Virus record (IMG/VR): IMGVR_UViG_3300008119_000039
Span: 20,522 to 84,521 of that record
DNA from: a virus
Strand: one strand, 5' to 3'
DNA: 64,000 nucleotides
Below the pieces are notes generated by a model that worked only from the letters and a program-made list of their open reading frames with translations, had not been told where the DNA came from and did no database searches. The position numbers and the translations under genes are program-made. Each line of letters opens with the position of its first letter. The first letter of the stretch is position 1. Positions 6,680-50,999 of the stretch are shown here, in pieces.

Positions 6680-7669
6680 ATGGTAAAGACTAAAACAAAA
6701 ATGACAGATGAACGTAGCTACTTTAAGCCGTTCAACTATCCATGGGCATACGAAGCATGGTTAAAGCACGAACAAGCACATTGGTTGCACACAGAAGTAC
6801 CAATGATGGAAGACGTTAAGCAATGGAAGAAAAGTTTAACACCACACGAGAAAACATTCTTGACAAACATCTTTCGTTTCTTTACGCAAGGTGACATTGA
6901 CGTAGCTGGTGGATATGTAAAGAACTACTTACCATACTTCCCACAACCAGAAGTACGTATGATGCTAATGGGTTTTGCTGCACGTGAAGCACTACACATT
7001 GCTGCGTATTCACATCTAATTGAAACACTTGGTTTACCTGAGATTACATATTCTCAGTTTATGGAATACCAAGAGATGAAAGACAAGCACGATTACGTTC
7101 TTGATATTTCTTCTAAGAATGGCACTATTGAATCAACTGCTACTCACATTGCGGTATTCTCTGCCTTTACTGAAGGTATGCAATTATTCTCTTCATTCAT
7201 TATGTTGTTGAACTTCCCACGTCATGGATTGATGAAGGGGATGGGACAGATTGTTACTTGGAGTATTGTTGATGAAACAATGCACGCTGAGAATATGATG
7301 AAGTTGTTTAAAGAATACATCAAAGAAAATCCAGAGATCTGGGGTGATGATCTAAAAGGTAAGATTTATACAATCGCTGAAAAGATGGTTCAGTTGGAAG
7401 ATAAGTTTATTGATCTGGCATTTGCTGAAGGCGAGATGCGTGATCTTAAGCCAGAAGATGTTAAGACTTATATTCGTTATATCGCAGATCGTCGTTTAAT
7501 TGGTCTTGGTATGAAAGGTATCTTTAAAGTTAAAAAGAATCCACTACCATGGGTTGAAGAAATGATCAATGCACCTGTTCACGGTAACTTCTTTGAGAAT
7601 CGTGTAACAGATTACGCTAAAGGTGCATTGTCTGGTTCTTGGGATGACGTTTGGGGAGCAGCTGCTTAA
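6680..7669 (+). CDS. nrdB: Ribonucleotide reductase class I beta subunit
   Basis: EALHIAAYS, FTEG, DETMH, NFFENRVTDY. Confidence 0.97.
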   Translation: MVKTKTKMTDERSYFKPFNYPWAYEAWLKHEQAHWLHTEVPMMEDVKQWKKSLTPHEKTFLTNIFRFFTQGDIDVAGGYVKNYLPYFPQPEVRMMLMGFAAREALHIAAYSHLIETLGLPEITYSQFMEYQEMKDKHDYVLDISSKNGTIESTATHIAVFSAFTEGMQLFSSFIMLLNFPRHGLMKGMGQIVTWSIVDETMHAENMMKLFKEYIKENPEIWGDDLKGKIYTIAEKMVQLEDKFIDLAFAEGEMRDLKPEDVKTYIRYIADRRLIGLGMKGIFKVKKNPLPWVEEMINAPVHGNFFENRVTDYAKGALSGSWDDVWGAAA

Positions 7670-8950: not shown

Positions 8951-9951
8951 CAAAAATACTTTTTATAACAGCAATAGCATTATCAGCTTGTGCAGCTTAT
9001 TACTCTGTAATGGGCTTGCTTGCTATTTTCTCAGCAGCTGTTATTCCAATTCTTATTATGGGTTCACTACTAGAAGCTGCAAAACTTGTAGTAGCTTCTT
9101 GGCTCTATCGTTCGTGGAAAGAAATTCCATTAATAATGAAGTCTTATTTCACCTCAGCATTAGTTATTTTGATGATACTAACTTCGATGGGTATCTTTGG
9201 TTATCTATCGAAAGCACACCTAGATCAAGCAGTCCCAAGTGGGGATGTTGCTTCAAAGGTATCAATACTTGATGAGAAAATAAAAACAGAAAAAGATAAC
9301 ATAGATGTCGCAAGAAAACAAATCAAACAACTTGATGATCAAGTGGACCAAACGATCGGAAGAAGTTCTGACTCGCAAGGAGTGGAGAGATCTCTACAGA
9401 TTAGACGAGGACAGCAAAAGGAAAGAACCGCACTTCTTGCTGAAATTGGATCAGCTCAAACCAGAATCGCCAGATTAAATGAAGAACGTGCACCAATTGC
9501 TGCTGACTTAAGAAAAGTTGAAGCTGAGGTTGGTCCGATTAAATATATTGCTGCGTTAATCTACGAAGACACTGCATCAGAAGATGTGCTAGAAAAAGCA
9601 GTTCGTTGGGTTATTATTATGATTGTTTTGGTATTTGACCCACTGGCTGTTTTACTATTGGTAGCAGCAAACTGGCAAATGCGTAAAGATTCTGAGATCA
9701 TCGTACAATCTGAAGAATTACCTGAACCACAACCTCTACAACCCAAGCCAGAGCCAGAGCCATTACCAGAAGAAAGTAAGAGTATAATCTCTAACTTCTT
9801 TCGTAAGCCTAAAGAAGACACGTCAACATTAGAAGTCTTTGAACACGCCACAACTAAGAAAGTTATAAACTTAAAAAATGAAGCTGTGGTGAATGATCAG
9901 ATTCAAATAGAACTTACACAAGAAAAACCTCCTAGACCACCTTTAAGGTAG
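8947..9951 (+). CDS. Membrane-anchored coiled-coil protein
   Basis: Three N-terminal TM segments, long coiled coil, IVLVFDPLAV TM, Pro-rich tail. Confidence 0.7.
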   Translation: MTKILFITAIALSACAAYYSVMGLLAIFSAAVIPILIMGSLLEAAKLVVASWLYRSWKEIPLIMKSYFTSALVILMILTSMGIFGYLSKAHLDQAVPSGDVASKVSILDEKIKTEKDNIDVARKQIKQLDDQVDQTIGRSSDSQGVERSLQIRRGQQKERTALLAEIGSAQTRIARLNEERAPIAADLRKVEAEVGPIKYIAALIYEDTASEDVLEKAVRWVIIMIVLVFDPLAVLLLVAANWQMRKDSEIIVQSEELPEPQPLQPKPEPEPLPEESKSIISNFFRKPKEDTSTLEVFEHATTKKVINLKNEAVVNDQIQIELTQEKPPRPPLR

Positions 9952-20098: not shown

Positions 20099-20638
20099 AT
20101 GAAAAAAGTAATCCTAGCAGTTGCGGTTCTCGCACTATCAGCATGCAGTTCAACAAAACTAACTGATGCTGGTCAATCCTCAGATGCAGTTAAGTATACA
20201 CAAGACTTTGGTAAAGTTGAAGTTACATTCAACGACAAGGGTGAGTGGGAATCTCTTAAGTCATCTGCAACATCTTCAGTGCCAATTTCTGTTGATGCTG
20301 GTCTTGAACAAGGTATGAATGTAGCACTTATGCGTGCTAAACGTAATATCGTTGAGTTTATTAATCAGGATCTAAAATCAAAAACAACCACAGATACAAT
20401 TACCAAAGCACTTGAGAAAAACATATCGGATGACGATGCTAAATCTAAACAAAAAGCTGCAGATATTGCCAGTGAGATCACTGAAAAGATTGCAGTTGAA
20501 TCGAATGGTATCTTAAAGGGTATTTACATTGTTGAGCGTAAAATATCCCAAGATTCTAAAACTGTTGTTGTTACAGTGCAAGTTGACAAACGATCTATGA
20601 ATGCAGCAAGTCAACTACGTGTAGCTATGGGGAACTAA
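20099..20638 (+). CDS. Lipoprotein (LPP20-like)
   Basis: Lipobox LSAC; ALMRAKRNIVEFI helix. Confidence 0.65.
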   Translation: MKKVILAVAVLALSACSSTKLTDAGQSSDAVKYTQDFGKVEVTFNDKGEWESLKSSATSSVPISVDAGLEQGMNVALMRAKRNIVEFINQDLKSKTTTDTITKALEKNISDDDAKSKQKAADIASEITEKIAVESNGILKGIYIVERKISQDSKTVVVTVQVDKRSMNAASQLRVAMGN

Positions 20639-48238: not shown

Positions 48239-48891
48239 TGAAAACATTTATACATCATGATCTACCCAAACTTGAACGTGACACAAAATCTGATGGTACG
48301 AGATTATACAAAACCCCATCAGGTAAATCCTATCCCTCCGTTACGACAGTTACAGGATTGCACTCAGCAAAGGGGATCATGGAATGGCGAAACAGAGTCG
48401 GAGAAGCAGAAGCCAACCGAATCTCTGGAAGAGCCAGTGCGAGAGGCACAAGAATCCACCAACACTGCGAAGACTTTCTCCTTGGAGAACATGTTGAGCC
48501 AGATATGTTTGATGCAGAGATGTTCAACTCAATCAAACCCCTGCTTGACCAAGTCGACAACATTCACTGCTTGGAAGATGCGTTATATTCTGACCACTTA
48601 CAAGTCGCTGGAACAGTGGACTGCATCGCAGAATTCCAAGGTAAACTTAGTGTTATAGATTTTAAAACATCAAGCAAACCAAAAGATCGTGATGATATTC
48701 ATAACTACTTTATGCAGACTGCAGCTTATGCTGTTGCATTTGAAGAACTAACAGGTATTCCTATTGGCAGACTTGTAATCATTATGGCAGTAGACAATGA
48801 TGATCCTCGTTGGTTTATTGAAAAGCGAGATAATTGGATTGGTGGATTTAAAAAGCTAAGATTAGACTATAAAAATAAATTTGCTATATAA
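48238..48891 (+). CDS. PD-(D/E)XK (Cas4-like) exonuclease
   Basis: YPSVTTV, RGTRIH, AGTVDC, IDFKTS, YFMQTAAY. Confidence 0.88.
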   Translation: MKTFIHHDLPKLERDTKSDGTRLYKTPSGKSYPSVTTVTGLHSAKGIMEWRNRVGEAEANRISGRASARGTRIHQHCEDFLLGEHVEPDMFDAEMFNSIKPLLDQVDNIHCLEDALYSDHLQVAGTVDCIAEFQGKLSVIDFKTSSKPKDRDDIHNYFMQTAAYAVAFEELTGIPIGRLVIIMAVDNDDPRWFIEKRDNWIGGFKKLRLDYKNKFAI

Positions 48892-48909
48892 ATAACTATA
48901 AGGTATAAT
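48881..48909 (+). promoter_or_regulatory. Nested early and late promoters for tmRNA
   Basis: TTGCTA-N17-TATAAT with TATAAATA (48887-48894) inside the spacer. Confidence 0.7.
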
Positions 48910-48914
48910 TAAGG

Positions 48915-49308
48915 TTATTGCTGTATGAAGCAAAGAGAAAGGTGTTCTGGACGAGGGTTCGATTCCCTCCACCTCCACCAGAAAGGATTTTATGGAAAAC
49001 TTGATTTTGTTAGTATTAATTGTAGTGCTAAACGTATACTGGGTTTATAGTTTAGTTACTTATGATTGGAGTAATTTTGAAAAAGATCAAGAGCAAGCCA
49101 AGAAAGATTTTTTCTGATGGGGGTGACTAGGTTTCGACAGGGCAACAAGTAAACAAGTGGACAGCACGGGAATGTGAAACCCGTAGGATTGGGGAAACTC
49201 GGTCGCAGAAGCAAAAAACGTAAATGCAAACGACGCACAGTTCGCTTTAGCAGCCTAAACACTGCTTAGGGTTTCGATAGGTTTCCTCGTAACAGAATAA
49301 CCTATCAC
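48915..49308 (+). ncRNA. ssrA: Circularly permuted (two-piece) tmRNA gene
   Basis: Acceptor piece with T arm and CACCTCC-ACCA ends 48980; coding piece starts GGGGGTG at 49119; G3.U70; tag ANDAQFALAA* 49226-49258. Confidence 0.92.
48992..49117 (+). CDS. 41-aa membrane peptide inside the tmRNA intervening segment (not in ORF track)
   Basis: SD AAAGGA right after CCA; MENLILLVLIVVLNVYWVYSLVTYDWSNFEKDQEQAKKDFF*. Confidence 0.65.
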   Translation: MENLILLVLIVVLNVYWVYSLVTYDWSNFEKDQEQAKKDFF

Positions 49309-49329
49309 TAATTCTAAAAGGATATTCAA

Positions 49330-49536
49330 ATGAAGAAATTTTTAATTGCACTAAACTTAGTCATCTGGTCATTTGTTGGTTATCAAGTTACCGCATATGC
49401 AGCTGAACCAGCAAAGAAAGAAGTCCCTGCTGGGCAAAATGATAATTGCGTAAAGAAAGACAAGAATGGTAAGTGCCCACCTCTACCAAAGAGTGAAAAG
49501 CCAACACCTAAGAAAAAAGTAGAAGATAAGAAGTAA
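49330..49536 (+). CDS. Small exported basic protein
   Basis: Signal peptide to AYA; CVKKDKNGKC. Confidence 0.6.
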   Translation: MKKFLIALNLVIWSFVGYQVTAYAAEPAKKEVPAGQNDNCVKKDKNGKCPPLPKSEKPTPKKKVEDKK

Positions 49537-50441: not shown

Positions 50442-50999
50442 ATGATGCAAAAACTGAATCTGCAGTTAAAGGATGAGCAATCTGCACATTCATTCTTTAT
50501 ATTGATGGAAGATATTTCATTATCTACCTGCAAACAAGCCATTGAATGGATCCTTGAAGCAAACTTTTCTGAAGAGCGACCAGATATGTTAAACCTACTT
50601 GTGTGTTCTCCAGGTGGTGATTTAAATGCTGCATTTGCTCTAGTTGATACTATGCGTGGTTCAGCTATTCCAGTTCGCACGATTGGTCTTGGTCAAATTG
50701 CATCCGCAGGATTGTTAATTTTTATTAGTGGTGAAAAGGGTCAACGTATTCTTACTCCAAATACTTCAATTCTTTCGCATCAATATTCTTGGGGTGCTTT
50801 TGGTAAGGAGCATGAGTTGTTTGCTACTATTAGAGAGTTTGATTTAACAACCAAGCGTATGATTGCTCACTATAAAAAATGCAGTGGTCTTACAGAACAA
50901 AAAATTCGTGAAGTATTACTTCCACCGCAAGACGTTTGGTTGTCTGCGCCAGAAGCTAAAAAATTAGGATTGTGCGATGACGTTAAAGATCTTAAGTAA
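50442..50999 (+). CDS. clpP: ClpP-like protease
   Basis: CSPGG, IASAG (Ser), SHQ (His), DVWLSAPEA (Asp). Confidence 0.85.
   Translation: MMQKLNLQLKDEQSAHSFFILMEDISLSTCKQAIEWILEANFSEERPDMLNLLVCSPGGDLNAAFALVDTMRGSAIPVRTIGLGQIASAGLLIFISGEKGQRILTPNTSILSHQYSWGAFGKEHELFATIREFDLTTKRMIAHYKKCSGLTEQKIREVLLPPQDVWLSAPEAKKLGLCDDVKDLK

Follow-up and report, generated by a model that had tools for sequence, protein, structure and literature searches.

The spacer of a permuted phage tmRNA as a probable cassette for exchangeable small genes

Can the part of a stable-RNA precursor that is discarded during maturation also be a gene? The question is raised by a 64,000-nucleotide (nt) stretch of viral DNA (positions 20,522 to 84,521 of the IMG/VR virus record IMGVR_UViG_3300008119_000039; the whole stretch is called the window here), in which a permuted transfer-messenger RNA (tmRNA) is interrupted by an intervening segment, or spacer, of 138 nt (48981-49118, + strand) that is filled by an open reading frame (ORF) for a peptide of 41 amino acids (aa). 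An earlier note made from this sequence alone had claimed that the segment starts with GAAAGGA, that an ATG at 48992 opens a protein-coding frame, and that this frame ends in a TGA reaching 49117; these coordinates and features were all confirmed on the sequence. Our interpretation, to which we give a probability of roughly 0.8 as a whole, is that the spacer is a stem-closed expression cassette that holds a real peptide gene, is co-transcribed with the tmRNA, and is exchanged among phages.

The tmRNA occupies 48919-49311 (+), as located by Rfam and ARAGORN. ARAGORN called a permuted tmRNA at 48888-49349 with the tag ANDAQFALAA, and Rfam covariance models place the locus in both RF04321 (tmRNA_permuted, 120.4 bits against a cut-off of 47) and RF01850 (beta_tmRNA, 96.1 bits against a cut-off of 84). 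The permuted order was confirmed: the T arm, the acceptor 3' strand, and CCA come first, and the acceptor 5' strand and tag frame follow. On the ARAGORN and Rfam boundaries, the acceptor (3') piece (48919-48980, +) consists of the T arm, the acceptor 3' strand CACCTCC (48970-48976), the discriminator A (48977), and an encoded CCA (48978-48980), and the coding (5') piece (49119-49311, +) consists of the acceptor 5' strand, the tag frame, and a 3' hairpin, beginning with GGGGGTGA at 49119, the tmRNA 5' end (G1). The acceptor 5' strand GGGGGTG (49119-49125) pairs with CACCTCC and sets G3 opposite T; a G3.U pair in the acceptor stem is the mark of alanine identity. The tag frame (49226-49258) reads ANDAQFALAA followed by TAA and has the expected hydrophobic ..ALAA ending. 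At the site of the spacer, which was delimited by sequence and by Rfam, the beta model has about 10 positions and the window an insertion of about 120 nt. A group I intron does not account for the insertion, since it lies between CCA and G1 and not in the T-loop, and the Rfam matches of the window include no intron family.

The gene in the spacer (48992-49117, +), defined by the ORF list, its homologues, and substitution patterns, begins with the ATG at 48992 and stops with TGA at 49115-49117, leaving one T (49118) before G1 of the tmRNA. The ORF listing (48992..49117 +) gives the peptide as MENLILLVLIVVLNVYWVYSLVTYDWSNFEKDQEQAKKDFF (41 aa), and a Kyte-Doolittle mean over 19 residues that peaks at 2.59 across residues 4-22 indicates one transmembrane (TM) helix, in agreement with the earlier description of a 41-aa peptide with a single such helix. 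A search with an alignment of three spacer copies found homologues on 21 other viral contigs at 46-78% identity, and the same alignment retrieved nine protein clusters of 41-45 aa. When a profile of 19 sequences was run against 1.84 billion proteins, 23 cluster representatives of 36-60 aa were recovered, 10 of them at E <=1e-10. Six residues (W17, T23, Y24, D25, W26, and F29) are invariant in all 19 family sequences. We refer to this unnamed group, which is defined in this analysis, as the T-Y-D-W membrane-peptide family; its members have an N-terminal TM helix followed by T-Y-D-W..F and a length of 36-60 aa, as does the window ORF.

The ratio of non-synonymous to synonymous substitution rates (dN/dS) was calculated over a gap-free core of 32 codons for the 171 pairs formed by 19 distinct nucleotide sequences (from 22). 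Across the 64 pairs with finite dS >0.05 the median was 0.18 and the maximum 0.50 (overall range about 0.06-0.5), and synonymous sites were saturated in 104 of the 171 pairs. Pairs of copies that both lie in spacers gave low values as well (0.14 for the window and L083, 0.08 for the window and L086). The protein-coding claim, for which the earlier note had named dN/dS below 1 as a test, is upheld by these ratios and by the homologues on 21 contigs. Because the frame is under purifying selection and has homologues in several contexts, we regard the ORF at 48992-49117 on comparative grounds as a genuine protein-coding gene.

The position of the peptide gene was recorded on 22 contigs, the window included. 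In eight cases the gene is inside the spacer of an intact tmRNA (window, L083, L086, L087, L090, L095, L096, and L097). The tmRNAs concerned are of more than one kind, beta-like in the window and alpha-like by score in L090 and L097, and their acceptor stems differ by compensatory changes (GGGGGTG/CACCTCC, GGGGCAG/CTGCTCC, and GGGGCCG/CGGCTCC). Another eight copies abut a tmRNA acceptor piece, with the stop -1 to 4 nt from the model start in the six that were scanned with Rfam; of the remaining two, L101 is truncated by the end of its contig, and its assignment is based on the first acceptor-piece bases only. Three copies lie about 450 nt upstream of a tmRNA, another (L098) comes after an orphan acceptor piece, with a complete tmRNA 1.7 kb further downstream, and two are without a nearby tmRNA and precede a NifU_N gene (178 bits). 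The peptide gene is therefore in or beside a tmRNA or a tmRNA remnant on 20 of the 22 contigs. Judged by these positions, the gene does not depend on the spacer for its existence, although it keeps to tmRNA transcription units with unusual fidelity. The contig of L098 was also recovered as locus L112, and on its minus strand carries an intact permuted tmRNA at 7262-7651 with an ORF of its own in the spacer; about 1.7 kb upstream, at 9362-9556 (-), comes the orphan acceptor piece; behind it are the T-Y-D-W gene, here lengthened to 60 aa, and next a gene of about 280 aa. This arrangement in L112/L098 looks like the relic of a duplicated tmRNA cassette.

If the spacer is a cassette, relatives of the phage might be expected to carry other genes in it, and a search for same or swapped cargo had been proposed as a check in the earlier note. 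Relatives' spacers do carry other small genes. A search with the neighbouring nuclease gene found 136 loci, of which 80 related ones (75-94% identity) were retrieved, and the spacer counts describe one phage lineage chosen through this one neighbouring gene. A tmRNA was present in 68 of the 80 (67 found by ARAGORN, and L015 added by a pattern search), which with the window gives 69 spacers, 52 of them distinct, that range from 26 to 200 nt and are hypervariable. We called a spacer ORF-filled if an ATG in its first 25 nt opened a frame that continued to the spacer end, and took the expectation from 1000 dinucleotide shuffles per spacer. Among distinct spacers of at least 90 nt, 12 of 17 were ORF-filled against 0.51 expected, and among those below 90 nt there was no excess (5 of 35 against 6.19 expected). 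The 12 filled spacers belong to nine unrelated sequence families, and an SD-like (Shine-Dalgarno-like) triplet is present in the first 12 nt of eight of them, compared with seven of the 40 others. That the window ORF is merely an open frame arisen by chance, in a spacer with only a structural or processing role, is scarcely credible, for although the sequence is AT-rich and short spacers are filled at the chance level, this reading is contradicted by the shuffles (an ATG-led frame filled the window spacer in 0.8% of 1000), by a dN/dS far below 1 with saturated synonymous sites, and by homologues that occur as ordinary genes outside spacers and number 23 cluster representatives.

The cargoes that share the slot are mutually unrelated and include soluble helical peptides and other TM peptides. 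Additional loci contribute a 24-aa TM peptide (L092), a CxC...CxxC peptide (L091 and L094), a 63-aa protein (L093), and the 38-aa ORF of L112. Three of these loci, L091 and L094 on the one hand and L092 on the other, are flanked by near-identical sequence, with the same T-Y-D-W gene in each at about 450 nt upstream, and differ in spacer cargo: the spacers of L091 and L094, near 2140-2280, hold the CxC...CxxC peptide, which reads into the tmRNA, and that of L092, near 2065-2160, holds the 24-aa TM peptide. We had considered the L091 cargo as a Bfd-like ferredoxin on the strength of its CxC...CxxC pattern and dropped the idea, as it has no Pfam support.

Three further cargo families were followed across loci. 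The family C cargo (52 aa; dN/dS 0.06-0.45) is found in the spacers of different tmRNAs (L248, L249, L252, and L254) and directly upstream of an acceptor piece in L253. The family D cargo (54 aa) has a 76%-identical homologue in L247 that is an ordinary gene without a tmRNA, and the pair differs at 27 synonymous and 17 non-synonymous sites. The family E cargo (62 aa) recurs at 95-100% identity on three tmRNA backbones that differ from one another. By such comparisons, other cargo families are likewise selected and likewise occur beside or outside a tmRNA. In L250 and L251 (at about 1130-1400), the family C gene is found between decayed tmRNA ends (...CAGGACCACCA before it and TGATGAGCCTG... 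after it) just upstream of a normal acceptor piece, which suggests that tandem tmRNA copies and decay of one of them could turn in-spacer genes into upstream genes.

Spacers and tmRNA bodies have different histories. L014 matches the window at 97-100% identity in the acceptor piece, the body of the coding piece, and the tag, and has a spacer of 65 nt that is 33% identical and cannot be aligned. L050 shows the reverse: its spacer is 94% identical to that of the window, compared with 62% for the 5' part of the acceptor piece and 48% for the body of the coding piece, and identity rises to 100% in the T arm, the acceptor strands, and the 5' end of the coding piece. The spacer of L051 is 77% identical to that of the window. 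Since the arms of L050 are fully identical, the tRNA-like arms travel with the spacer, and we infer that the cassette is exchanged by homologous recombination through these arms.

The same comparisons bear on the idea that the gene is real and that its insertion disabled the tmRNA, leaving a decaying remnant. Orphan or decayed tmRNA parts do lie beside cargo genes in L098/L112 (the orphan acceptor piece) and in L250/L251 (the relic flanks), but the window tmRNA scores well above both Rfam cut-offs, and still has its CCA, its ANDAQFALAA tag, and the G3.U pair; the short-spacer locus L014 has a tmRNA that matches it at 97-100% identity. In addition, in-spacer copies of the gene reside in tmRNAs whose acceptor stems have changed in a compensatory manner. 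We therefore consider a disabled tmRNA very improbable.

Spacers that hold no gene have features of their own. Several short non-coding ones (L014, L018, L019, L069, L082, L084, and others) have an internal module in common, …TTGACGAACC..G…GGTAGCAAACA…GTGGCAATAT…, within closing stems that differ, and this module may be a conserved small RNA. Of the 40 distinct spacers without an ORF filling them, 10 were scanned with Rfam by E-value, and tmRNA was the only family matched. The 92-nt non-coding spacer of L025 (3743-3834) contains a T-arm-like fragment, GGGTTCGAACCCCACC, that may be the remnant of a tRNA or tmRNA piece.

Given how often the peptide gene accompanies a tmRNA, does the peptide act in ribosome rescue or in the tag-and-degrade pathway, for example on a membrane protease that degrades tagged proteins? 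The location of the gene in or beside a tmRNA or its remnant on 20 of 22 contigs, and the ClpP gene 1.3 kb downstream in the window, would fit such a role. However, unrelated cargoes, soluble helical ones and other TM peptides among them, use the same slot, two homologues lie away from any tmRNA beside a NifU_N gene, and searches of Pfam, PHROGs, and ESM Atlas gave no homology to known factors. We rate this explanation as unlikely. The earlier note had concluded that a small membrane protein is coupled to the output of a ribosome-rescue RNA; the physical linkage to tmRNA stands, and a specific functional link is not supported, since unrelated cargoes share the slot. Our guess is instead a moron-like accessory peptide of the inner membrane, produced along with the tmRNA; for the same reason we think it likelier than a direct part in rescue or tag-dependent proteolysis, though the latter is possible. 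Other searches did not narrow its function: tblastn of the peptide against 50,697 phage records gave no match, and PHROGs and Pfam searches with nine cargo peptides, together with Pfam searches with three more, returned nothing usable for function.

How might a gene be expressed from inside a tmRNA precursor? The ends of the window spacer are predicted to pair in an 11-base-pair (bp) closing stem, which is present in the minimum-free-energy folds of both the spacer alone and the whole precursor. Its 5' strand, GAAAGGATTTT (48981-48991, +), contains the SD-like AAGGA, and its 3' strand, AAGATTTTTTC (49104-49114, +), consists of the last codons of the ORF. When the first nucleotides of each spacer were compared with those just before its last four, a stem of at least 8 contiguous bp was found in 44 of the 52 distinct spacers (median 10, range 8-13 bp), and in 14.7% of 2550 mismatched partner pairs. 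There are 42 distinct 5' stem strands among the 52 spacers, and retention of the stem despite so many different strands indicates that covariation maintains the pairing. Where the peptide gene lies outside a spacer, its product likewise ends in D-L-F, encoded by a U-rich string, so that the C-terminal FF tail is not merely a by-product of the stem and the natural C-terminus was already suited to pair with a purine-rich SD sequence.

After the stem comes a TGAT leader (49115-49118, + in the window), conserved among spacers just before G1, which supplies the stop of the ORF. TGAT forms the last four nt of 44 of the 52 distinct spacers, coding or not. Bacterial RNase P prefers U at position -1, and this preference would explain the conserved leader. 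Five cargo families stop at the TGA of TGAT, and at least five other cargo ORFs (L005, L073, L015, L074, and L091) are in a different frame, have no in-spacer stop, and read at least 12 nt into the tmRNA.

The sequences themselves show a real and selected gene, a closing stem, a TGAT leader, a mosaic structure, and a spacer that behaves as a slot; the start of transcription, the excision, the translation template, and the role of the peptide are our inference. The peptide gene would be transcribed together with the tmRNA from a promoter-like site of sigma-70 type (TTGCTA-17-TATAAT, 48881-48909, +) that lies directly upstream of the acceptor piece and is a consensus match only, at 10 of 12 positions. 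The SD sequence would emerge about 120 nt ahead of its pairing partner, and ribosomes could enter the nascent precursor while the 3' strand of the stem is still to be made, or afterwards when the weak A-U/G-U stem opens. A ribosome at the last codons or the stop would cover the 5' acceptor strand, making translation on the one hand and folding or RNase P cleavage on the other exclusive in each molecule. tRNA-type processing, with a presumed RNase P cut at G1, would then free the two tmRNA pieces and release the spacer. Over longer times the cassette would be swapped between phages by recombination, leaving relatives with other small genes or with the hairpin only.

A different template would be the excised 138-nt spacer itself, acting as the mini-mRNA that the earlier note had offered as one of two options; termination at its 3' end would then compete with trans-translation. 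An 11-nt leader, the SD sequence, and the ORF do fit exactly between the processing sites, with the end one base after the stop, and the five cargo families that end on TGA one base before G1 conform to this arrangement. On an excised RNA, however, the cargo ORFs of L005, L073, L015, L074, and L091 would have no stop; TGAT is as much a property of non-coding spacers, which suggests that the position of the stop may be incidental; and in the predicted fold of the free spacer the SD sequence is paired. Translation of the excised spacer is thus a possibility that we doubt, and the cargo ORFs without an in-spacer stop favour the unprocessed precursor as template.

Several results count against the interpretation of the spacer as an expressed and exchanged cassette. 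The sequestration of the SD sequence in the closing stem, as seen in minimum-free-energy folds, could keep translation low. A promoter scan found 4 sites in the region against 3.4 expected, which is not above shuffles. No match to SmpB (PF01668) was found on the 84.5-kb contig, which is 53% complete; host SmpB may serve the phage tmRNA. Twelve of the 80 related loci showed no tmRNA, some of them being cut by contig ends, and were left aside. No family could be assigned to the peptide: the Pfam match to DUF6341 (PF19868) is below the cut-off (16.8 against 26.4 bits, E 0.0052), with weak matches to the same family in six of 19 family members (best E 0.00069), the best PHROGs match has E = 0.032, and an ESM Atlas search gave no lead. 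A bacterial control remained small, yielding four credible permuted tmRNAs among the matches listed, with spacers of 4-28 nt without an ORF; it drew on at least 120 stretches of genome contigs found with an unspecific 14-nt pattern and all run through ARAGORN, and the permuted calls for L169 and L179 were set aside as false for overlapping standard tmRNAs. Finally, the RNA data consist of contigs, which cannot show ends, and an RNA library may hold DNA.

One RNA-library contig (X18; 151 nt, depth 2, 0 differences) covers 48993-49143 and lends weak support to the cassette interpretation, as it reaches 25 nt past the spacer junction, below the 31 nt set for bridging, and comes from a library that may itself hold DNA. 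In a lake metatranscriptome (X15), contigs cover the tmRNA coding piece (49134-49301) with several letter differences, which point to relatives of the phage as their source and suggest that RNA libraries contain tmRNAs of this phage group; contig depth cannot rank expression. A single record in X16 ends at 48978 and continues with adapter letters, and we draw no claim from it. Of the four RNA runs compared, X15-X17 left some bins of the spacer uncovered, and these gaps carry no weight as evidence.

The cassette interpretation has a more speculative extension, in which the slot is integron-like and also serves as a maturation-gated timer in aquatic T4-like phages; as a joint claim we hold it only tentatively and think it rather unlikely. 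Small genes would be captured and swapped through the tRNA-like arms and expressed from the tmRNA promoter, and a ribosome on the last codons would block formation of the acceptor stem and the RNase P cut. The excised message would end one base past the stop, or without a stop, and its product would be a substrate of the tmRNA from the same transcript. If true, this would amount to a built-in limit of peptide synthesis to the period before processing.

Is such an arrangement known? In SgrS/SgrT, RNAIII/hld, and E. coli tyrT-tpr, a functional RNA and a small protein come from a single transcript, but the coding part is neither an excised spacer between RNA halves nor a swappable cassette. The earlier note did not recognise the arrangement as described, and in our full-text search, which covered main texts outside subscription journals, we likewise came across no account of a tmRNA spacer with a protein gene. 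The tmRNA itself is an ordinary member of the permuted class; the coding, swappable spacer is what differs. Compared with the permuted tmRNA genes of RF01850 and RF04321 and that of the OM43 phage Melnitz, in the part of its description available (PMC9004378), the window has the same order of pieces, tRNA-like domain, CCA, and ..ALAA tag. That part of the Melnitz paper describes two-piece phage tmRNAs and a glutamine riboswitch and reports no spacer genes (PMC9004378). Known permuted tmRNA spacers are short and treated as non-coding, whereas that of the window is a selected gene in an exchangeable cassette.

The nearest architectural analogue is the intervening sequence with an S23p ORF in the 23S rRNA of Coxiella burnetii, where an ORF is likewise located in a segment removed from a stable-RNA precursor (PMC4990558). 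According to the abstract of that paper, the element is a 428-nt selfish element in rRNA helix 45 with one ORF family, and the results suggest that its protein is not made (PMC4990558). In the window, by contrast, the host RNA is a tmRNA, and many unrelated selected small genes share one slot; no S23p-type Pfam match was found for the window peptide, and the resemblance is architectural only. A 2025 tmRNA database paper describes, in the portion available, T-loop group I introns, some with homing-endonuclease genes, as well as one spacer with a tRNA-Ala gene and one with a repetitive element, and the term 'ORF' is absent from its main text (PMC11915505). As in the window, foreign sequence is tolerated and removed in these cases, but it takes the form of T-loop introns or of RNA or repeat cargo.

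Because annotation treats the spacers of permuted tmRNA genes as RNA or passes over them, genes of this kind escape gene callers and RNA annotators alike, which argues for an ORF scan of these spacers across the database (11,946 unique sequences of permuted tmRNA genes, according to the available portion of PMC11915505). The 'discarded' part of a stable-RNA precursor can, in this case, be a selected messenger and a hot spot of small-gene exchange in abundant lake phages. The locus also offers a natural system in which to see how translation and tRNA-type processing share a transcript and how ribosomes terminate beside an RNA cleavage site, and it adds a family of phage membrane micro-peptides with no role assigned.

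The source of the window is an 84.5-kb IMG/VR virus record estimated to be 53% complete, whose content includes a tRNA array, PhoH-like and ClpP genes, and T4-like neighbours. Cultured phages have only the T-arm region in common with the tmRNA region (at most 15% of the query matched) and match at most 12% of a 4.2-kb stretch; the neighbouring nuclease has up to 46% protein identity to cultured phages, the best being T4-like cyanophages. For a 1.66-kb stretch around the locus, contigs holding 0.92-0.98 of the sampled words were found in 14 DNA runs labelled as freshwater, lake, or similar, two of which may be the source sample. Among the matches listed, the four bacterial two-piece tmRNAs carry the tags ANDEQFAIAA and ANDERFALAA, similar to that of the window. 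The contigs L127, L150, and L237 have the tag ANDEQFAIAA and a 28-nt hairpin spacer, and the titles of L127 and L150 name a Betaproteobacteria metagenome-assembled genome (MAG) and an Azonexus MAG. The closeness of bacterial to phage tags (ANDAQFALAA and ANDEQFALAA) is a hint to the host group or to where the phage gene came from.

Two genes downstream of the tmRNA complete the neighbourhood. A 68-aa ORF (49330-49536) starts 19 nt past the Rfam beta_tmRNA end (49311); its N-terminus resembles a signal peptide, and its tail is rich in lysine and proline. It matched no Pfam family, and no terminator-like site was found between it and the tmRNA. Further on, 1.3 kb downstream of this tmRNA with its tag ending in LAA, lies a gene for a ClpP-family protease (50442-50999; Pfam CLP_protease, 96.9 bits).

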